Source: a bacterium
GTDB taxonomy: Bacteria > UBA10199 > 2-02-FULL-44-16 > DYJF01
Reading direction: 5' to 3'
DNA length: 34,421 nt
Assembly: GCA_041739675.1 (NCBI GenBank)
Contig: JBGSNL010000020.1
Coordinates: 1 to 34,421 of the forward strand
How positions within the stretch are numbered: the first letter of the stretch is position 1; the number at the start of each line of letters is the position of its first letter. The notes beneath the pieces were generated by a model. It did no database searches. It was not told the DNA's origin and saw only the letters and a program-made list of their open reading frames with translations. The translations under genes were made by a program, and so were the position numbers. Positions 6,308-34,421 of this stretch are shown here, in pieces.

Positions 6308-7197
6308 TCCCTTTCCAGAACCCTCAACTTTGCACTTCGCGATCTCGTGTTTTTTCCGACCTCATCCTCGGAAGGCGTCACAATTTTTTTTGTCACAACT
6401 TTGTAGCCGCCTTTTTTCGCCAGATCCCGAAACGCATTTTTCACCAATCTATCTTCAAGCGAATGATAACTTATGATCACGAGCCTTCCGCCCCCGCATA
6501 GAATCTCCGGTGCATTCTCCAAAAATCCGGCCAGCTCGCCCAGTTCGTCGTTTACGAATATCCGAAGCGCCTGAAACGTGCGCGTCGCCGGATGAATTCT
6601 CCCCCGGCGCGCAGGAGGCGGAACCGCCAAGCGAACCGCATCCGCCAAATCTCCGGTTGTAAGGATCGGATTCATCCTTCTTCTCGTCACTATCGCCCTT
6701 GCGATCCTTCTGGAATACCTCTCCTCTCCAAACTCAAATATGATTCTCGAAAGCTCTTCTTCGCCCTCATTGTTCACAACATCCGCGGCGCTTCTTCCTC
6801 GGCCCTGATCCATCCTCATGTCGAGCGGGCCGTCACTTGAAAACCCGAAACCGCGTCCGGCCTTTTCCAACTGGTGCGATGAGACTCCAAGATCCGCGAG
6901 AATTCCGTTAGCGCATCTATAATTCCCGCTTCTTGTCAATTCGCGGACATTGGAGAATGCACCCTGAACTATCCGAACTCTTTCGCCGAACTCCTTCAAA
7001 TTCTCGCGCGCCGCAATCACCGCGTCGGCATCCTTATCTATTCCAAAGAGCCGGCCCGAAGGATTTGACGCCTCAAGTATCGCCCTTGAATGACCGCCTC
7101 CGCCGACAGTAGAGTCGATGTAGAATCCCTCCGGGCTGCACCTCAAAAAGTGAAGGGTCTCCTGCACCATCACCGGTGTATGCCCAAAAGAATTCAT
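6304..7197 (-). CDS. rsmH: 16S rRNA m4C1402 methyltransferase
   Basis: Motifs HTPVM, DSTVGGGGHS, DLGVSSHQL, PLDMRMD, HPATRTFQALRI, SYHSLEDR, RSRSAKLR. Confidence 0.98.
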   Translation of the reverse strand: MNSFGHTPVMVQETLHFLRCSPEGFYIDSTVGGGGHSRAILEASNPSGRLFGIDKDADAVIAARENLKEFGERVRIVQGAFSNVRELTRSGNYRCANGILADLGVSSHQLEKAGRGFGFSSDGPLDMRMDQGRGRSAADVVNNEGEEELSRIIFEFGEERYSRRIARAIVTRRRMNPILTTGDLADAVRLAVPPPARRGRIHPATRTFQALRIFVNDELGELAGFLENAPEILCGGGRLVIISYHSLEDRLVKNAFRDLAKKGGYKVVTKKIVTPSEDEVGKNTRSRSAKLRVLERD

Positions 7198-7589
7198 TGC
7201 AGCTCGCCGTCGGGTCTTTTCTCAAGAAAACTCAAGAGCGCATCCTCAACAGATGGGAAGAACTCTTCCTCCAGACCCATCACCTGCAGAATGCTTTGGA
7301 CATAGGAGCTGACGTTCGCCATTTTTATATCGCCGCCCTCGCACTGAAACGTGACTATGTGATCGGCGAGACGTCTCACCAGCTGATAATCCAAATGCCT
7401 CAGGCGTTCCATGTTGAGAATTACGTTAAGTTGGCCGCACTGCGAAAACGATTTGAAGACGTCTTCAAGATGACGCACATTGTGCCTGGACAAGTCACCC
7501 GCGACATCCACGACTGAGATGTCGTGAACGCGATTGACCTGAAACATCCGCCCTTCATTTATTGTGCTTTCCCTCACCCCATAAATCAT
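7194..7589 (-). CDS. STAS-domain (anti-sigma-factor antagonist-like) protein; alternative start at 7547
   Basis: SpoIIAA/STAS pattern: VVDVAGDL, VILNMERLRHLD, GGDIKMAN, VQSILQVMGL, FPSVEDAL. Packed between mraZ (2-bp gap) and rsmH (4-bp overlap). Confidence 0.8.
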   Translation of the reverse strand: MIYGVRESTINEGRMFQVNRVHDISVVDVAGDLSRHNVRHLEDVFKSFSQCGQLNVILNMERLRHLDYQLVRRLADHIVTFQCEGGDIKMANVSSYVQSILQVMGLEEEFFPSVEDALLSFLEKRPDGELQ

Positions 7590-19950: not shown

Positions 19951-20901
19951 TTATCTTGATACAATTTCACTCCAGATTTCTTTCAGGAGATTGGTCGGGT
20001 GTTTCCAGGCGCGGATGGAATAGGGAACGATGCAGCCGCAGCGGTCGCAATCGGCCTTGGCGCCTATCACACAGGGCTTTTTGGGGTTGCCCTGGCAGTC
20101 CAACGCGAGACCGTGCTTAACAAAGACGCAATTTTTTCCGACAGCCCTTCCCTTGTTTTCGTGCATCATTAGTTTGAATGTCATGGGCGGGCCGCCGATG
20201 AATGAACCGTATTTCTCCCTCTTGAGGATCATGAGTTTTTGAAGAACGCGGTCCCGCTCTTCAAAGGTGAGCCACAAATCTTCTTTGACGCCCTTGATGG
20301 GGGTGAAAAAATCAAAAAGGATATGCCTGATGTTGGGAATTTGGCTCCACTCCGCAAGCAGCGCCTCGATGCAATTCACGTTGTTTCTGTGCAGACAACA
20401 CGCAATAGCAATTTGCATTGAGCCGTCACCCACATTTCCCAAATTCTCCTTAATCTTCGCGTACGTCCCCTTGCCACGGACCTTGTCGTGAAACTCTTCG
20501 GTACCGTCCACGGAGATATGGAACTCCACATCTTGCCATGAGGGCAGAGACAACGTGCCGTTGGTAACGACCCTGTTTGCTTTGAAAAATTTCCGCCCTT
20601 TCTCTATGAGCCCGCAACGCAGCAGAGGCTCCCCCCCGACCCAGGTACAGCTGTAGAAGGGCTTGGGGCCCTTCTGCATCTTCTCGATTCGCGCAAGCCA
20701 CTCGTCGTCGGTAAGCTCTTTTTTGTCGTTCTGATCGTATGAGAAAAAATAACAATGTTCACACCTTAGGTTGCACTTTGAGGTTACGTCGATCGAGCAA
20801 AAGGTGTTTTTGGGGAGGGGGGCGAACATCAGGGCCACTCTTGGCAGTATTTTACCCCTCCAGAATGGGTGTTTGGCCTGCTTGACTATCTTATCCGCCA
20901 T
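19951..20901 (-). CDS. Radical SAM protein with Cys-rich C-terminal (auxiliary Fe-S) extension
   Basis: CNLRCEHC (CxxxCxxC), GGEPLL, TNGT, ISVDG...HDKVRG; C-terminal C...C...PC...DCDRCGC. Start trimmed to 20901 because the longer ORF overlaps the divergent gene. Confidence 0.9.
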   Translation of the reverse strand: MADKIVKQAKHPFWRGKILPRVALMFAPLPKNTFCSIDVTSKCNLRCEHCYFFSYDQNDKKELTDDEWLARIEKMQKGPKPFYSCTWVGGEPLLRCGLIEKGRKFFKANRVVTNGTLSLPSWQDVEFHISVDGTEEFHDKVRGKGTYAKIKENLGNVGDGSMQIAIACCLHRNNVNCIEALLAEWSQIPNIRHILFDFFTPIKGVKEDLWLTFEERDRVLQKLMILKREKYGSFIGGPPMTFKLMMHENKGRAVGKNCVFVKHGLALDCQGNPKKPCVIGAKADCDRCGCIVPYSIRAWKHPTNLLKEIWSEIVSR

Positions 20902-20950
20902 AGGGTATGGACGCTTAACCCATAGGCCGCACCCAAGGCAAGGAGAATTA

Positions 20951-23281
20951 ATGGGACTTCTGGGACTAAATCCGAAATTGTGGATCACATTGGGGCCCAT
21001 TGTGGCCATCAATATAATCCTTTTTATTTCTCTTTTGGCCTACACCTTCACAAACAGGACACGTAAAAGGGATATACCTGAGGCGGCCAAACGCCATACC
21101 TCCAAATTTCTCTCGGGCCATTTTAAGGAATGGTGGGTCTTCACGACCGACCCGATCGCCAAGCTCTTCGTGCGCCTTGGCATCAGGCCGTCCACCCTCA
21201 CACTCATAGGATTCCTCTTCAGCGCCACAGCGGCTATCCTTTTTGCGAAAGGGCTTTTCGGATATGCCGGTTGGGTCATGATCTTCGGCGCGACGTTCGA
21301 TATTTTCGACGGTCGCGTGGCGCGCCTGACGGGAACGGAATCCCGGTCGGGCGCGTTCTACGATTCCGTGATGGACCGCTTCGGCGAGGGTGTCTGCTTT
21401 CTGGGGCTGGCCTTCTATTTCCACGCAAGCTGGGTCCTCTTCTTCGTGGTCGCCGGGTTAATCGGATCGATGCTCGTTTCATACACACGCGCGCGCGGCG
21501 AGAGCGTTGGAATCATCTGCAAGGGCGGCTCGATGCAGCGCCCGGAGCGCATCGTTTACTTAGGCGTCTCCTCCGTTTTCGATCCCATCTCTTCGATACT
21601 GCTTCTCAACTGGTTTACGGCGCCACCCCCGGTTCTGGTCATCGGCGCCATCATTATAATAGCTGTGATGACCAACATTACGGCGATCCATCGGATGATA
21701 TATATAATGAATGCCCTCGACACATCGGACAAGAGCGATCGCGAAACAATTCCGCAGCTTTTGACAAGACTTTCGACCCCCGAAGGGAGAGAGGCGTTTT
21801 TTTCCAAGGCAAGATACGGCTATGACAGAAGCAGGGCCTCTTTCGAGCACGTGATTTTGTTCCTTTTGGACGGTGCGGATCGTGAAGTGATCGCCGATCT
21901 CGCGCGCCGCGGCCAAATGCCCAACGTCTCGGAGCATCTTTTGGCCAGAGGAGGCATGTATGAGGCCGTCAGTGCATTTCCATCCACGACCGGCCCGGCG
22001 TTCACGCCTTTCGTGACGGGATGTTTTCCGGGAACGTGCAACCTGCCGGCAGTGAAGTGGTTTGACAGGTCCATTTCCTCGGCGCGCGTTCTGGCGCTCA
22101 ACCGTTTTCGCGATTATATCGGATGGGGCGCGTACGCGATGGATTACGATCTTTCAAAATCGGTCAGGACTATTTTTGAATATTCCCGCCGTGCGATGAA
22201 TATTTTCGGACCGCTCAATCGCGGTTGCGGAATCATCAGGGACCCGGCGTTCTTCCGCCTCCATTCGATTTTCAGAAGGGCGCGAAAAGATACGGACCTG
22301 GCGGAACTTGAAGGAGTCGCGTTCCAGTGGTTTGAAGACGCGATGTGGCGCGATACGGATTTTGTCTTCTACTCGTTCCCCTCGGTGGACGTTGCCGGCA
22401 TCCACAGGGATAAAGACGCCATACATGAGGCATACCGCAGATTCGACGCCGTCCTCGGAAAGGCCGTGGCCCTTTTGAAGGAGCACGGAAAATACGACCA
22501 GACGGCGATTCTCATAGCTAGCGATCACGGCCACGGCGTTCACGAGCGCTCGTTCGATCTTTCCGGCTTCTTGAGTGCGCGCATGCCCACGCTTCGCTAT
22601 CCCGCAAAGGCGCGCTTGTGGCAGGAGGCGAAAGCGATCCCGCTCGTTTCCGGCACGTCGATGGCACATCTCTATCTCAGAAAGGGAAGCGACTGGACGG
22701 AAAAATGTCTTTTCGAGGACATTGAGCGGACGGGCCTTGTGGGAGCGCTGCTGGAGAAAAACGAGATAGACATCATCGCGGGAAGGAGCGCCGAGGGAGG
22801 CGTTGGCGTCTTGAGCCGGAGGGGAAGGGCCCATCTTGTGGAAGACGCGGACGGCAGGATCACCTATCGGACGACCGGCGGCGATCCGTTCGGCTTCGGT
22901 GAGATCCCGCAGGTAATAGATTCGGAAACCGCTTTCTCCCTGACATCGAAATCGGATCATCCCGACTCAATCATGCAGGTGCTGCAGCTTTTCAGATCGC
23001 CCAGAACCGGCGATATCGTGATAAGCGCGGCCGCAGGCTGCTCGCTCGAGGAGCGCAGAAAAACGGTCTCAACACACGGTTCTCTATTACGCCAACATCT
23101 GTCCGTGCCTTTCCTGTCCAGCGTTCCCATAAAGCGGGATTTAGTGAGGACGGTCGATGTGTTCGCGTTTATACTCGACATTCTGGGGATCGACACGGAG
23201 CACAAACTTGACGGTGAAGCATTGGAGCGATCAAGTCGCCACATTGACAGCCAACTCAAAACTGCTATAGACGGTTTATAA
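20951..23281 (+). CDS. Fusion of a CDP-alcohol phosphatidyltransferase (PIP/AIP-synthase-like) and an alkaline-phosphatase-superfamily (NPP-like) domain
   Basis: SD AAGGAG. N-half: DIFDGRVAR...GAFYDSVMD signature, SYTRARGE, QRPERI. C-half: LLDG, FPSTT, DVAGIH, ASDHG, THG. Confidence 0.88.
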   Translation: MGLLGLNPKLWITLGPIVAINIILFISLLAYTFTNRTRKRDIPEAAKRHTSKFLSGHFKEWWVFTTDPIAKLFVRLGIRPSTLTLIGFLFSATAAILFAKGLFGYAGWVMIFGATFDIFDGRVARLTGTESRSGAFYDSVMDRFGEGVCFLGLAFYFHASWVLFFVVAGLIGSMLVSYTRARGESVGIICKGGSMQRPERIVYLGVSSVFDPISSILLLNWFTAPPPVLVIGAIIIIAVMTNITAIHRMIYIMNALDTSDKSDRETIPQLLTRLSTPEGREAFFSKARYGYDRSRASFEHVILFLLDGADREVIADLARRGQMPNVSEHLLARGGMYEAVSAFPSTTGPAFTPFVTGCFPGTCNLPAVKWFDRSISSARVLALNRFRDYIGWGAYAMDYDLSKSVRTIFEYSRRAMNIFGPLNRGCGIIRDPAFFRLHSIFRRARKDTDLAELEGVAFQWFEDAMWRDTDFVFYSFPSVDVAGIHRDKDAIHEAYRRFDAVLGKAVALLKEHGKYDQTAILIASDHGHGVHERSFDLSGFLSARMPTLRYPAKARLWQEAKAIPLVSGTSMAHLYLRKGSDWTEKCLFEDIERTGLVGALLEKNEIDIIAGRSAEGGVGVLSRRGRAHLVEDADGRITYRTTGGDPFGFGEIPQVIDSETAFSLTSKSDHPDSIMQVLQLFRSPRTGDIVISAAAGCSLEERRKTVSTHGSLLRQHLSVPFLSSVPIKRDLVRTVDVFAFILDILGIDTEHKLDGEALERSSRHIDSQLKTAIDGL

Positions 23282-29793: not shown

Positions 29794-31203
29794 TTAATTA
29801 ACGCGTCTCCTTTTCATTCCTTCAACAAGCCTTCGCGGCAGGTTGTCAAACGCACCGTTGGACATGAAGAGAACGACATCGTTCGCGCTTATGTTTCTCA
29901 GTGCAAATTCAAGGAGGTTATCTGACTGCGGAATGTAATGAGCATCGATCCCCTTTCTCATCAGGGTATCGGCCACACCCTGAACGTCCAGCCGCTCGTT
30001 TTCCGGAATCTTCTCCGAGCGGAAGACACCTCCGATGAGAACGCGGTCGGCCTTTGAGAGCGCGTCGATGAAGCCCTCGCGGAAAATGTTGCGGCGGCTG
30101 GTGTTGGAGCGCGGCTCGAATATCGCCCAGAGGCGTCTGTCCGGATATTTTTGCCGCATAGCCTGTATCGTTTTGGCGACCGCCGTGGGATGATGGGCAA
30201 AATCGTCGATCACCACGACAGATTTGACCTCGCCCACAATCTCCTGTCTGCGGGCGACCCCTTTGAACGTGGCCAGTCCCTTCTGGATCTTTTCAGGCGA
30301 AACACCGTATTCGCAAAGAATCGCGATCGCACCAACGACATTTGAGAGATTGTGGTCACCGGAAAGTGTGGTCGTAAAATTAGCCGACACGTTCGGGCCG
30401 GCAAGATCGAAGTTCGTGCCAGTCTCGGTTGCGGAAACATTTTCCGGATAATAGTTCGTGCCGGCTTTCAGGCCGTACGTGAGTGTGCGCCCCTTTGCAA
30501 GCTTTGCAATCTCGGACACGTTTTCGTCTTCCCCGTTACAGATGAGAAGACCGTCGGGCGGCAGAACTCCCATCAATTTTTTGAAAGACTCTTTTATGTG
30601 GTTAAGATCCCGATAAATATCAGCATGGTCGAACTCAATTGAGGTAAGGAGAATCGCCTGCGGCAGATAATGCAAAAACTTCGGCCCTTTGTCGAAAAAC
30701 GCGGTGTCGTATTCGTCCCCTTCGATCACAAAGATTCGGCCGCCGCCGACGTGCGCGCTCTTCTCGAAATTTTTTCCCACTCCGCCGATCAAAAATCCTG
30801 GATCCTCGCCAGCCTCCGAGAAGAGCCATGCAAGAAGAGTCGCCGTCGTCGTCTTGCCGTGCGTGCCGGCGACGACTATCGGAGTTTTTCCCTTCAGGAA
30901 AAATTCGGCAACCGCCTGCGGCATCGAACGATAAGGCAGCCCCAGTCTCAAGACTTCCTGTGCCTCAGGATTCATCTTCGTGATGACGTTTCCGATGATG
31001 ACAAGATCGGGCTTTTCACTCAGGTTTGCGGCCCCATAGCCTTCGAAAATTTTTATCTTGAGCTCTGCGAGTTGATCACTCATGGGGGGATAGAGCTTCT
31101 CGTCGCTGCCGGTCACGCGGTATCCCTTTTCAACAAGGAGCCTTGCCAGCGACCCCATCCCCGTCCCGCCGATACCAACCATGTGTATGTGACTAAGCTC
31201 CAT
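29794..31203 (-). CDS. mpl: UDP-MurNAc:L-Ala-gamma-D-Glu-meso-DAP ligase (murein peptide ligase)
   Basis: IGGTGMGSLA, YPPMSDQL, AGTHGKTTT, IEGDEYDTAFFDK, EFDHADIY, DDFAHHPTA, FEPRSNT, MSNG; these are Mpl rather than MurC signatures. Confidence 0.93.
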   Translation of the reverse strand: MELSHIHMVGIGGTGMGSLARLLVEKGYRVTGSDEKLYPPMSDQLAELKIKIFEGYGAANLSEKPDLVIIGNVITKMNPEAQEVLRLGLPYRSMPQAVAEFFLKGKTPIVVAGTHGKTTTATLLAWLFSEAGEDPGFLIGGVGKNFEKSAHVGGGRIFVIEGDEYDTAFFDKGPKFLHYLPQAILLTSIEFDHADIYRDLNHIKESFKKLMGVLPPDGLLICNGEDENVSEIAKLAKGRTLTYGLKAGTNYYPENVSATETGTNFDLAGPNVSANFTTTLSGDHNLSNVVGAIAILCEYGVSPEKIQKGLATFKGVARRQEIVGEVKSVVVIDDFAHHPTAVAKTIQAMRQKYPDRRLWAIFEPRSNTSRRNIFREGFIDALSKADRVLIGGVFRSEKIPENERLDVQGVADTLMRKGIDAHYIPQSDNLLEFALRNISANDVVLFMSNGAFDNLPRRLVEGMKRRRVN

Positions 31204-31285
31204 TGGACACACCCCTACCTTTAGGTTTTAATATGCCAAAATAACCAAATTTTGCGGGAATTTCAAGTATTTATAAGCCGCCCGT

Positions 31286-31324
31286 AAAACAAAAATGCCC
31301 CCCACTTGAAAGCAAGGGGCATTG
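31286..31324 (-). terminator. Intrinsic terminator after the lipoprotein gene
   Basis: Minus strand AATGCCCC-TTGCTTTCAAGTGG-GGGGCATT followed by TTTGTTTT. Confidence 0.75.
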
Positions 31325-31344
31325 AAAATCTATGTCGGAAATTT

Positions 31345-32310
31345 CTATTCACTTCCTAATCTCGCCCGCTCACGCTCCTGGACACGCGCCTGCTGCCTTT
31401 CCTGATCGGGATCGTGACACGTATCGCTTGTTCCACCAAAATCTCTCACGGTGAATGATGTGGCGATATCGGCGGCCAACGCATCGCCTTCAGCCGATAA
31501 AACACCTTCTGGGCCCGAAACAATAAGGACATCAATCGTGGCACCCATTTCATATCCACCCGAAGGAGCAAAGACGATTTCAAATTCCATATACTCCGCA
31601 TCTTCCCATACAGAAAACGCACCTTCGACGGCGGCCCCATCGACCGTGGAGATTTTAATTGTATCTGCAGTCACCGTTGCTTCATCCAATGCCTTGGTGA
31701 AAACAATCTTCACTGGTCTGCAAGGCGCGACGTTCAATTGACCGTCATAAGGTCTTATAAAGAGTAAATTGAAAACTGAAGTATCAACAACTGTCTCGCC
31801 GTCTCCAAAAGCTTGCGGAATGCCGTCACGATCCGCGTCCTGGCCGTAATAGGAGCGGATCCCGTTTTCACCGAGGCCTTCAACATCGCCTTGCATTACC
31901 ATCTCACCCCCACTGAAACCCATCTTTCCAAGGTCAACATCCGTTCCGTCTTCAATCACAAGCGCGGTGATACCGTTCATCGTCAGATATCCAAGACGTT
32001 GCCCCGCACCGTCTAAAAATCCGAACATCCAGTTTCCATTCCGCACCCTCACCCTCCAGCGGTTCGTTGCGGGATCTATCTCTCCCTGAACTTCACTCCC
32101 GTCGGAATTGTAAGCCGTGACACCGCACACCTCGCCGATGCACGAGCCTCCCTCCTCCAGCGCCTTCATGGTAACGGCGGCGGCATCGCTTTCAATTTCA
32201 CCTGTGATCAGCCGTCCCTCGTCTGCCGGCTCAGTTGAAGTCGCTCCTCCACACGCTGCCACAAGAAGTAAGACACCGATCATCTCCAAAAAATTTTTAT
32301 TTATCTTCAT
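31345..32310 (-). CDS. Lipoprotein with an N-terminal beta domain, a DxDxDG motif and a C-terminal Ig-like (Big_5-type) domain
   Basis: SD GGAGGT; lipobox VAA-C; DADRDG; P.DG..NV....VKIVFTKALD..TV...F.P...G...SFTV pattern. Confidence 0.82.
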   Translation of the reverse strand: MKINKNFLEMIGVLLLVAACGGATSTEPADEGRLITGEIESDAAAVTMKALEEGGSCIGEVCGVTAYNSDGSEVQGEIDPATNRWRVRVRNGNWMFGFLDGAGQRLGYLTMNGITALVIEDGTDVDLGKMGFSGGEMVMQGDVEGLGENGIRSYYGQDADRDGIPQAFGDGETVVDTSVFNLLFIRPYDGQLNVAPCRPVKIVFTKALDEATVTADTIKISTVDGAAVEGAFSVWEDAEYMEFEIVFAPSGGYEMGATIDVLIVSGPEGVLSAEGDALAADIATSFTVRDFGGTSDTCHDPDQERQQARVQERERARLGSE

Positions 32311-32352
32311 AACGCACCTCCATTTTTTTACTTGTTATGCGGTCCTTTCCTT

Positions 32353-32364
32353 CACCTCCTTTCC
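32353..32364 (-). promoter_or_regulatory. Orphan extended Shine-Dalgarno-like element in the 5' leader
   Basis: GGAAAGGAGGTG(A) in the loop of a GCGGT/ACCGC stem (32373-32339). No start codon at SD distance; the gene has its own SD further downstream. Confidence 0.55.
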
Positions 32365-32434
32365 TGCAACCGCGATTCATCTGCCATTATTGTCTCTTAT
32401 CCCGCTGCTAGAGGCACGCATATTGTTCCCTAAA

Positions 32435-32453
32435 TGTATTCAATATGAATACA
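32435..32453. promoter_or_regulatory. Palindromic operator, copy 1
   Basis: TGTATTCA-ATA-TGAATACA, a perfect 8-bp inverted repeat upstream of the 31345-32310 lipoprotein gene. Confidence 0.8.
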
Positions 32454-32551
32454 CTCAAAACTCTTAATTAGTTAATATATAAGGTGATTTAAATCTAATG
32501 TGATTAATATGTATCGTAATCGAAACCAATTAGAATACAACCGACTGTTTG

Positions 32552-33037
32552 TTACATACCGCCAGAACCATTTCCCATTTGCCGGCGCGGCTCATTTTCA
32601 GGGATAAAGACACCGTCCTGAAACCTCACCTGTCCCATATCTATCGGGCTTCCCCTCTGGGTTATTTGCAGCCGGTTTGCCCTGTTGCCCATCTCATCTT
32701 GTTCAAAACTGAACGGTCCCACCACCTCTCCCTGCATCAGAACCTCAAGGGAATATGTTTTTCCCAACTCAACATCTATCGCAAAAAAACCGTCCACATC
32801 CACCATGGATTCTTTTACTGAGCCGTCCGTTGCCGTTGCGACGACGGTGAGTGTCGTGGGATCAACCGCCTGCAGCGCAACGCTTTTCGCCTCCTCAATG
32901 GTGCTGACATCGATTACGCCCTCTATCGTCCTCAATGTAGGAATCTCGCTTGTCGGATTGCCAACTTCCGTTGCGCTCCCGCAGCCCATAATCACAGCGG
33001 CCGCAAAGACAAAAATGACCTTGAATAAACTTCTCAT
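32552..33037 (-). CDS. Lipoprotein (161 aa), translationally coupled to the TIGR02147-type gene
   Basis: Lipobox IMG-C followed by GSATEVGNP; beta-rich body; ATGA overlap with the upstream stop. Confidence 0.85.
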   Translation of the reverse strand: MRSLFKVIFVFAAAVIMGCGSATEVGNPTSEIPTLRTIEGVIDVSTIEEAKSVALQAVDPTTLTVVATATDGSVKESMVDVDGFFAIDVELGKTYSLEVLMQGEVVGPFSFEQDEMGNRANRLQITQRGSPIDMGQVRFQDGVFIPENEPRRQMGNGSGGM

Positions 33038-33873
33038 ACTTGCCTCTTTTCACGCGTTACACGGAACAGTTGAAGATTCAATTGATAGACATGGTCATCT
33101 TCAATTTTCCCTCGCCCTTCCAGATAAGAAAGTATTTGCTTCCGGCAATCGTTTAACATTTGTGTAATTTCCGGAACATCCTCTTGCCGGCATGCAAAAG
33201 TTATGGCCGAAAAATTCCTTTTATCGGGCATTTGAGTGCTAAGCGCATCCATTGCCAGGCGCATCATTTGATCGTGATAAAAATATGATGCCGCAGCCTG
33301 CGTTTCCGGGCCGGTCGAGATGACGGCCTCGGATTGTTTCAAATTTCCGCTTTGATCGCGACTCAAAAGACCAAGCTCCACAAGTTTGTCGATGGCCTCG
33401 TCGACATGCGGCGGGGATACATTGTGGCCTATCCTTCCTGCGATAGCGCGCCGTTCGTTTCTGAACCACTTCGTTGTCACCATCTCGCGAATCACCGGAT
33501 AATACCACTTGGTCAGATATTCGTATTGGTTCTGCTTGAGGTTATTCTTATATTTTTTAAAATAATTCGCCATCTCCAGAACGTAGTTGGCCTTCGCCTC
33601 CGGCGTGTCAGCCTGATTCATGTTGACGAGCAGCTCAAAATATTTTTTCTCCCTTCTCTTGAGCTTCAAGATTTTCGTGAAAATCGTCATCGTTGCCGGC
33701 GTGATATTGCGCTTGCCGTTGATGATAAGCTGAAGCTGGTTGGGCGATTTGAAACCGGCCCATCTGGAAAAAGTGCGGTACGAAAACCCCGCCCTAGTCT
33801 CCTTCATCCACAAATACCAGTCTTTGAGATATACCCTGAAGTTTTCGTAATCTGAAATGACCGGGCAATTCAT
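33034..33873 (-). CDS. TIGR02147 / DUF4423-type protein (N-terminal HTH, probable transcriptional regulator)
   Basis: DY..FRVYLKDWY...K.....FSYRTFSRWAGFKSP..L.LIINGKRNI, WYYPVIREM, YH.QM..LA..AL, R.FS.ITF, VYQLNLQLF; SD AAGGGAG. Confidence 0.85.
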   Translation of the reverse strand: MNCPVISDYENFRVYLKDWYLWMKETRAGFSYRTFSRWAGFKSPNQLQLIINGKRNITPATMTIFTKILKLKRREKKYFELLVNMNQADTPEAKANYVLEMANYFKKYKNNLKQNQYEYLTKWYYPVIREMVTTKWFRNERRAIAGRIGHNVSPPHVDEAIDKLVELGLLSRDQSGNLKQSEAVISTGPETQAAASYFYHDQMMRLAMDALSTQMPDKRNFSAITFACRQEDVPEITQMLNDCRKQILSYLEGRGKIEDDHVYQLNLQLFRVTREKRQV

Positions 33874-33941
33874 AAGATCTCCCTTTCATGCATATTATCT
33901 CATAATATAACCTGGCTTGGGAGAATAATATACGCATAGGC

Positions 33942-33958
33942 GTATTCAAACTGAATAC
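33942..33958. promoter_or_regulatory. Palindromic operator, copy 2
   Basis: GTATTCA-AAC-TGAATAC upstream of the TIGR02147-type gene; arms and spacer length identical to copy 1. Confidence 0.8.
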
Positions 33959-33995
33959 ACCTAAAGCACATATCCAATTGATATTATTAGCTATA

Positions 33996-34421
33996 TCAGC
34001 GACCTATAATATAACGATGAGGATCCACGTCCTCGCTAAGAATTCGCAGACATTCCGCCTTAGGGGCTTCGGTCGTTTTGAGATTTTTGGATATAAGCAG
34101 CTCGAAGCCGGTATTTTCCACGACTTGCTCTATCGTGACGCCGGGGTGAAGCGATTCCACTTCCATCCTGCGGTCGGAATTATTGAAACCCATGATGGCG
34201 AGATTTGTGATGATCTTGTAGGGGCCCGATCCTTTCGGAAGACCGGCATCTTCCCTTGCGTTTCCGCCCGTGAGATAGCCCGGCGATGTAATGAAATCCA
34301 CTTTTTTTGCAAAGCGGCGCTTCTCATGCGGGGTGATCACGATCGTGTGCCAGCAGTTCGTCGCCAGGTCGCACGCCCCGCCGCTCCCGGGAAGCCTTAC
34401 CTTCGGATGATTGTAGTCGTC
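33996..34421 (-). CDS. Family I CoA-transferase beta subunit (GctB/CatJ-like), 5' end outside window
   Basis: The frame is open to the window edge: DYNHPKVRLPGSGGACDLA...HEKRRF..KVDFITSPGY...SLHPGVT..V.ENTGFEL. Confidence 0.9.
   Translation of the reverse strand, partial: DDYNHPKVRLPGSGGACDLATNCWHTIVITPHEKRRFAKKVDFITSPGYLTGGNAREDAGLPKGSGPYKIITNLAIMGFNNSDRRMEVESLHPGVTIEQVVENTGFELLISKNLKTTEAPKAECLRILSEDVDPHRYIIGR

Follow-up and report, generated by a model that had tools for sequence, protein, structure and literature searches.

A TIGR02147-family regulator and two lipoproteins as a candidate class I-type activator switch in a UBA10199 bacterium

A contig of 34,421 nucleotides from a bacterium of the lineage UBA10199 (assembly GCA_041739675.1, contig JBGSNL010000020.1; hereafter, the window) contains three genes on the minus strand, encoding a regulator of the TIGR02147/DUF4423 family, a small lipoprotein (LipoA) and a larger lipoprotein (LipoB). 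Together with two identical operators these genes probably form a self-contained switch for surface lipoproteins, in which a positively autoregulated activator of the class I type serves a regulon of two sites. A regulator dimer would bind GTATTCA-N3-TGAATAC through its N-terminal Xre helix, as covariation strongly suggests. Standing at about -62 of two weak promoters of the sigma70 type, it would recruit RNA polymerase like a class I activator, to judge from the geometry. The extended -10 promoter would provide basal amounts of the regulator and the translationally coupled LipoA, followed by self-amplification, and the weak -35/-10 promoter of LipoB would be almost wholly activator-dependent. 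The features are as follows.

33942-33958, strandless: operator 1, GTATTCA-N3-TGAATAC, upstream of the regulator; exact match, centre at about -63 from the predicted start
33894-33902, minus: predicted extended -10, TG-n-GATAAT, of the regulator/LipoA operon, read by eye
33034-33873, minus: regulator gene, TIGR02147/DUF4423, 279 residues; open reading frame (ORF) and profile matches
33034-33037, minus: ATGA stop/start overlap of the regulator and LipoA, gap -4
32951-32971, minus: tag T-E-V-G-N-P-T, LipoA residues 23-29, within the tether that follows the lipid cysteine; from the homologue alignment
32552-33037, minus: LipoA, lipoprotein of 161 residues, Cys19; ORF without Pfam or NCBIfam match at cut-off
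32436-32452, strandless: operator 2, GTATTCA-N3-TGAATAC, upstream of LipoB; exact match, centre at about -62 from the predicted start
32412-32417, minus: predicted weak -35, GTGCCT, of the LipoB promoter; GTG invariant at that offset in 9/9 loci
32389-32394, minus: predicted -10, GACAAT, of the LipoB promoter, 17 nucleotides after the -35; from spacing conservation
31345-32310, minus: LipoB, lipoprotein of 321 residues, Cys20; ORF with PF13205 match
31294-31323, minus: intrinsic-terminator-like hairpin after LipoB, 13-pair stem and T-run

The first-pass annotation, made from the window alone, had proposed an autoregulated transcription factor that controls a downstream lipoprotein via a shared site. 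This proposal is well supported, by all eight modules, by the specificity of the site in the genome and by the correspondence between recognition helix and half-site; the predicted sign of the regulation is now activation. The details on which it was built, namely the ATGA overlap, the mature N-terminus C-GSATEVGNP of the small lipoprotein and the common palindrome before both units, were all recovered.

Among 92 other genomes of the class, 7, all from the order, have a close LipoB homologue, one of them cut by a contig end. Upstream of each lie an orthologue of LipoA and a regulator that shares 58-77% identity with that of the window, and all eight loci have an operator before the regulator and before LipoB. 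Operator 1 is present in 8/8 orthologous loci with 0-2 mismatches, and operator 2 at 9/9 loci, where the ninth LipoB promoter comes from a partial metagenome locus. Out of four loci retrieved by a contig search with the regulator and a metagenome search with LipoB, only L187 was counted, and three possible repeats were left out. The flanking genes differ among the modules, except in the same-genus genome. The neighbouring mpl, tamB, bamA-like and CoA transferase genes were rejected as module members, since their synteny is kept only in that genome.

The palindrome is not expected by chance. Shuffled sequences contain on average 0.07 copies with at most two mismatches, and none of 100 shuffles reaches two copies. 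In the assembly of 1,911,008 bases (94.6% complete) only the two module copies occur at 0-1 mismatch. A wider regulon in this genome was rejected, since among the sites with up to two mismatches a -10 element at the right distance accompanies only those of the module. A degenerate pattern, built from these same module sites, finds 19 sites in the eight module genomes, 16 of them in the module, with none for the reversed control. The same pattern has no sites in two module-less genomes of the order and none in five other genomes of the class.

The predicted promoters keep a strict distance to the operators. Regulator promoters have TG-n-[GC]A-n-AAT in 8/8 orthologues, 50-52 nucleotides from the operator centre, and no conserved -35. 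The LipoB promoters follow the order operator, 17 nucleotides, GTG-nnn, 17 nucleotides, nAnAAT, the -10 reading GATAAT, TACAAT or TAGAAT in orthologues. This -10 starts exactly 50 nucleotides from the operator centre in 9/9 loci, and none of 5000 rotations matches that. Hence the operator centres fall at about -62 to -64 from the predicted transcript starts. Across the family, a -10-like element stands 48-52 nucleotides from the centre of 34/62 operators. The centre of 14/62 falls 59-63 nucleotides ahead of the ATG; many of these have TTG and TAnnnT elements, consistent with leaderless genes, and such leaderless members support transcript starts that place the operator at about -62.

According to PMC4132738, class I activators have sites with their centre close to -61.5, and the spacing is less strict when the -10 is extended. 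The difference between the fixed 50 nucleotides at LipoB and the 50-52 at the regulator matches the relaxation described there. Both promoters have the predicted geometry of this class, a weak promoter with a site near -61.5. Since the operator occupies the position of a class I activator site, the geometry most likely points to activation and not repression.

Most Xre proteins repress. The regulator could thus be an ordinary Xre-type autorepressor, or a dual regulator like the C proteins of restriction-modification systems, that keeps both lipoproteins off, and its Xre fold, with resemblance to HigA, DdrO and C.BclI, would suit that role. However, the sites stay clear of the core elements, 17 nucleotides upstream of the -35, the spacing is constant to the base in 9/9 loci, the core elements are non-consensus, and no second strong site was found. 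We consider repression unlikely.

The family at large indicates which protein reads the palindrome. We extracted 126 distinct regulators from family loci, 124 of them with enough upstream DNA. A GTnnnC palindrome is present in 62/124 promoters, compared with a shuffle mean of 2.1 and a maximum of 7. The half-site follows residues 43-45 of the regulator. Perfect GTATTC sites accompany 17/53 S-P-N regulators and 0/71 others; GTGTTC is found with 7/22 [ST]-S-N regulators and 0/102 others, GTTTTC with 5/9 S-S-[GA] regulators and 1/115 others, and GTATAC or GTGTAC with 3/5 S-T-N regulators and 2/119 others. In a quick tree of the regulators, the pairings with GTATTC and with GTGTTC appear again in clades that are separate and supported. 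When labels are permuted, kinship being ignored, the 32/35 matched pairs compare with a mean of 9.2 and a maximum of 18. Because the half-site tracks the recognition-helix residues of the N-terminal Xre domain across the family, the regulator very probably reads the palindrome through this helix.

If some other, global factor read the palindrome, the TIGR02147 gene would be merely one of its targets. Such a reading draws on the fact that we infer the binding of the regulator from sequence comparison. It is very improbable, as there are only two sites in this genome, the sites occur in module genomes and not in the seven others searched, and the half-site follows the helix encoded by the adjacent gene.

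Extra copies of the operator were seen at L190 and L195 (both G002:C3) and at L192 (G016:C40). Both G002 sites lie upstream of paralogous lipoprotein-like genes of 430-450 residues, near another S-P-N regulator.

Several points weigh against the activator switch. The eight or nine module copies form one clade (support 99) of a single order and are not independent. A sigma70 promoter scan listed neither promoter, and their elements were assigned by consensus. GATAAT as a -10 is also similar to the sigma28-like class of this genome, and a site at -62 may be compatible with repression in some states. Three of the 19 genomic sites lie outside the module and do not have the -62 geometry. The pairs of motif and triplet were picked from the same data on which they were tested, and the permutation takes no account of relatedness. 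Finally, a perfect GTATTC site within 250 nucleotides is missing from 36/53 S-P-N regulators.

By PF04542, the assembly encodes three sigma factors, closest to RpoD, RpoH and FliA/WhiG. Use of sigma28 at both promoters is less likely, since GACAAT, TACAAT, TAGAAT and TG-n-CATAAT fit sigma70 better. Activation at sigma28 promoters from -49.5 is described in PMC2859248. A large sigma28-like promoter class of the form GCAAC[TA]-N16 or N18-GATAA was observed in this genome, with 66 matches against 7-10 in controls, before many long unannotated ORFs. Contig C5 breaks off within the gene of the FliA/WhiG-like factor; a lipoprotein that may resemble a type III secretion ring protein is encoded on the same contig.

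The gap of -4 to the regulator is common in the family (44/99 coupled lipoproteins). The larger lipoprotein had been described as a separate unit with its own leader and terminator. It does have its own predicted promoter and a 3' hairpin, and strong hairpins follow LipoB in several orthologues; on the other hand, the stretch from LipoA to LipoB yielded no terminator-like site, and read-through from LipoA may occur. In one orthologue the second operator lies 10 nucleotides past the LipoA stop codon. A scan of 31000-34421 against Rfam gave nothing at gathering level, and neither a conserved RNA structure nor an upstream ORF was found in the LipoB leader across orthologues.

The assignment of the regulator to its family, made at first from the sequence alone, was confirmed by profile hidden Markov models: TIGR02147 (Fsuc_second) matches with 232.8 bits (cut-off 50) over profile positions 4-271 of 272, and DUF4423 (PF14394) with 117.5 bits (cut-off 30) over residues 109-272. 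The regulator is thus a member by both curated cut-offs. It is the only TIGR02147 member in its own assembly; relatives have up to 18 matches. The family was found in 33/41 related genomes and comprises 7,442 clusters at 50% identity (E up to 1e-30).

The AlphaFold2 (AF2) model of the regulator (mean predicted local distance difference test score, pLDDT, 89.2) has a probable Xre/Cro-type helix-turn-helix domain at about residues 9-93, with the recognition triplet S43-P44-N45, a winged helix at about 109-186 and a C-terminal domain at about 189-272. Residues 11-93 resemble 3pxp (Z 8.0, a middling value) and DdrO (Z 6.8). The winged helix resembles 2p4w and 7r22 (Z 8.4, also middling; over 74 residues for 2p4w), and residues 112-272 resemble 4g6q with a similarly middling Z of 7.3 over 150 residues. 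The claim of a helix-turn-helix draws on the fold model and on other family members, of which 5 among 53 match HTH_3 and 5 match HTH_31, both Xre-type Pfam models; for the window protein itself no Pfam helix-turn-helix model matched. A sequence search of solved structures gave weak matches only (C.BclI at E 0.079), and a Foldseek search with the model gave nothing at E 0.001.

In the literature searched, outside which lie subscription papers and supplements, we found no paper on TIGR02147, PF14394 or Fsuc_second, and for this large family no function, site or partner in print. The sole printed mention of DUF4423 that we found is in PMC12546842, where a row of a table gives Bd3700 as upregulated while growing in prey.

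Both LipoA and LipoB are lipoproteins by inspection and by a pattern rule, having a basic N-region, a hydrophobic core and a lipobox cysteine. The lipid cysteine is invariant, C19 in 51/51 LipoA homologues and C20 in 36/36 LipoB homologues. LipoA has a single beta-sandwich domain, a relative of the one at the N-terminus of LipoB. For this pair HHalign gives 97.7% (E 1.5e-12), a score to which the signal peptides contribute in part, and pairwise BLASTP is not significant. CarboxypepD_reg-like look-alikes of LipoA, at 0.91, are a lead only.

The tether after the lipid cysteine of LipoA carries the tag. T23, V25, G26, N27, P28 and T29 are invariant in 51/51 homologues, and E24 is kept in at least 90%. 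Since the synonymous codon positions vary, the tag is conserved as a peptide, and conservation at the DNA or RNA level was rejected. A ribosome-arrest export monitor similar to SecM is unlikely, as the tag is only 23-29 codons from the start. No Pfam family covers the tag in the 107 coupled lipoproteins searched.

The tag belongs to the gene next to the regulator. After removal of loci found only via LipoA, those with less than 300 nucleotides downstream and one fragment, 114 of the 126 regulators remained. By an automatic rule, a lipoprotein starts within 60 nucleotides of the regulator in 99/114 cases, and 82/99 of these lipoproteins are tagged by a loose pattern; the expectation that the downstream gene among homologues is usually a tagged lipoprotein was thus correct. 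By the same loose pattern the tag is present in 90/107 first lipoproteins and 2/35 second ones (8 of the 35 being LipoB orthologues), and by a tight pattern in 70 and 1, respectively. It is absent from 36/36 LipoB homologues. In the genome of the window, the loose tag occurs in 3/72 lipoprotein-like ORFs, one of which is LipoA. These alignments and counts indicate selection on the tag and a tie to the regulator-coupled position, where it is most likely a linear docking peptide.

A tentative extension of the activator switch takes the tag as a ligand that the regulator binds with its C-terminal domain: the N-terminus of unexported or released LipoA would tune activation and thereby report export or envelope state. 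The first-pass annotation had already suggested that the coupled lipoprotein may act as partner, sensor or feedback element, for example through its N-terminal peptide or export status. The restriction of the tag to first lipoproteins and its absence from the paralogue LipoB fit a ligand of the regulator. Alternatively, the tag could direct trafficking, processing or modification by envelope machinery whose genes lie elsewhere, with no feedback to the regulator. We regard this as about equally tentative: a general signal should mark many lipoproteins, and the tag is nearly missing from other lipoproteins of this genome, from second lipoproteins and from LipoB. The tag persists on bodies of 40 sequence clusters, including a Cu/Zn superoxide dismutase (L018), and is found in three tandem copies in L011, which suits a ligand, while its place beside the lipid cysteine, independent of the body fold, resembles an export signal. 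In Bacteroidota, according to PMC5080379, such a signal is K-(D/E)2 or Q-A-(D/E)2 after the cysteine. The tag matches neither form, and its distance to the cysteine varies widely across the family.

Further evidence on the ligand comes from the regulators. Tag variants follow regulator clades, an agreement that linkage by itself would produce. Where tags have lost G-N-P, in one clade (L137, L145, L150), R219 of the regulator, an arginine in 120/126, is replaced by K, and H200 by K or Q; this covariation comes from that single clade. Tag-less beta-propeller lipoproteins are the coupled partners of four regulators, which retain most conserved positions. Moreover, the inner membrane separates the regulator from the mature lipoprotein, and the module encodes no membrane transducer.

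The tag was also seen on a mini-lipoprotein of 77 residues (L022). The sole second lipoprotein with a tight tag, in L111, has its own operator copy upstream.

LipoB, which lacks the tag, consists of an N-terminal beta-sandwich, an Asp-rich loop (158-163), a Big_5 Ig-like domain (177-287) and a C-terminal helix. The Big_5 match (PF13205) has 25.9 bits against a cut-off of 23.6. In the AF2 model (pLDDT 86.1) the Ig-like domain matches Ig domains of LdtMt2, CopC and SbsC with Z of 10-11. The conserved D-x-D-x-D-G loop looks calcium-binding, a function suggested by its sequence. No catalytic family was found. LipoB is most likely a non-catalytic scaffold or adhesin of the envelope or surface. Other clades hold the tag and Big_5 in a single coupled lipoprotein (for example, L089, L091, L101). 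This suggests that LipoA and LipoB arose by a duplication that copied the operator too, after which LipoA would have kept the tag and lost the Ig-like domain, and LipoB would have kept that domain without the tag.

LipoB homologues keep four cysteines besides the lipid cysteine, and residues 57-62, 158-163, 197 and 298 were flagged. The leader contains a second strong Shine-Dalgarno-like sequence at 32352-32363. In 4/7 orthologues, upstream in-frame starts would lengthen LipoB by 11-24 residues; in the window this frame is closed.

Among known systems, class I activation by CRP of E. coli shares the dimer site near -61.5, the weak promoter and the relaxation of spacing by an extended -10 (again PMC4132738). 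Unlike CRP, the regulator combines Xre and winged-helix domains, serves a local regulon of two sites and has no known effector. C proteins are small single-domain Xre proteins, encoded upstream of an endonuclease gene, that regulate themselves from tandem operators at the -35. C.BclI and its kind share with the module a palindromic operator and an operon with a coupled second gene, and probably also autoregulation and the Xre fold. However, the regulator has 279 residues with two extra domains, its partner is a lipoprotein and not a nuclease, and there is a single site 17 nucleotides upstream of the -35; identity as a restriction-modification C protein was rejected on these grounds. The ArsR-like proteins Kfla_6221 (4g6q) and Pyrococcus Phr (2p4w) share the fold of residues 109-272 but lack the N-terminal Xre domain that apparently reads the operator here.

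Envelope signalling triggered by lipoproteins is familiar from RcsF-IgaA-RcsCDB and NlpE-CpxAR. As there, the localisation of a lipoprotein could report envelope state, whereas the module lacks an inner-membrane transducer, a kinase, a response regulator and an anti-sigma factor. Two-component and extracytoplasmic function (ECF)/anti-sigma signalling were rejected, since no such gene is conserved beside the module. The first-pass statement that the module includes no kinase or ECF sigma factor agrees with the profile scans and the comparison of neighbours, the genome having only RpoD, RpoH-like and FliA-like factors. The export signal of Bacteroidota, as given in PMC5080379, is likewise a short motif directly after the lipid cysteine; LipoA has G-S-A-T-E-V-G-N-P-T instead, and the tag is confined to the regulator-coupled gene.

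It is conceivable, though we would put it forward only with reserve, that a TIGR02147 regulator and its coupled lipoprotein constitute an undescribed two-protein envelope monitor. The C-terminal domain would bind the T-[ED]-x-G-N-P tether, and export or release of the lipoprotein would set the switch without kinase, anti-sigma factor or transducer; paralogous cassettes, each with its own pair of helix and operator, would then be a bank of independently switchable surface modules. If so, this locus would be its minimal form, in which LipoA carries the tag and a separate protein, LipoB, is the payload, and binding of the tag to the regulator would be a new route for reporting envelope state to the chromosome. 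The locus contributes a single-copy form of three genes and two sites, in which one paralogue is tagged and the other is not. It is also the cleanest test case, as it combines one regulator per genome, exactly two sites, the geometry of an activator and a code predicted to link residues to bases, with the tagged and untagged proteins as a natural control.

Two other observations concern distant parts of the window. A STAS-domain gene (7194-7589, minus strand) lies between mraZ and the mraW/rsmH methylase gene, which are usually adjacent, at the head of the cell-wall cluster. Finally, a single open frame at 20771-23281 (plus strand) combines a CDP-alcohol phosphatidyltransferase with an alkaline-phosphatase-superfamily domain; a MarR/ArsR-type helix-turn-helix gene follows it, and a radical SAM gene lies opposite.

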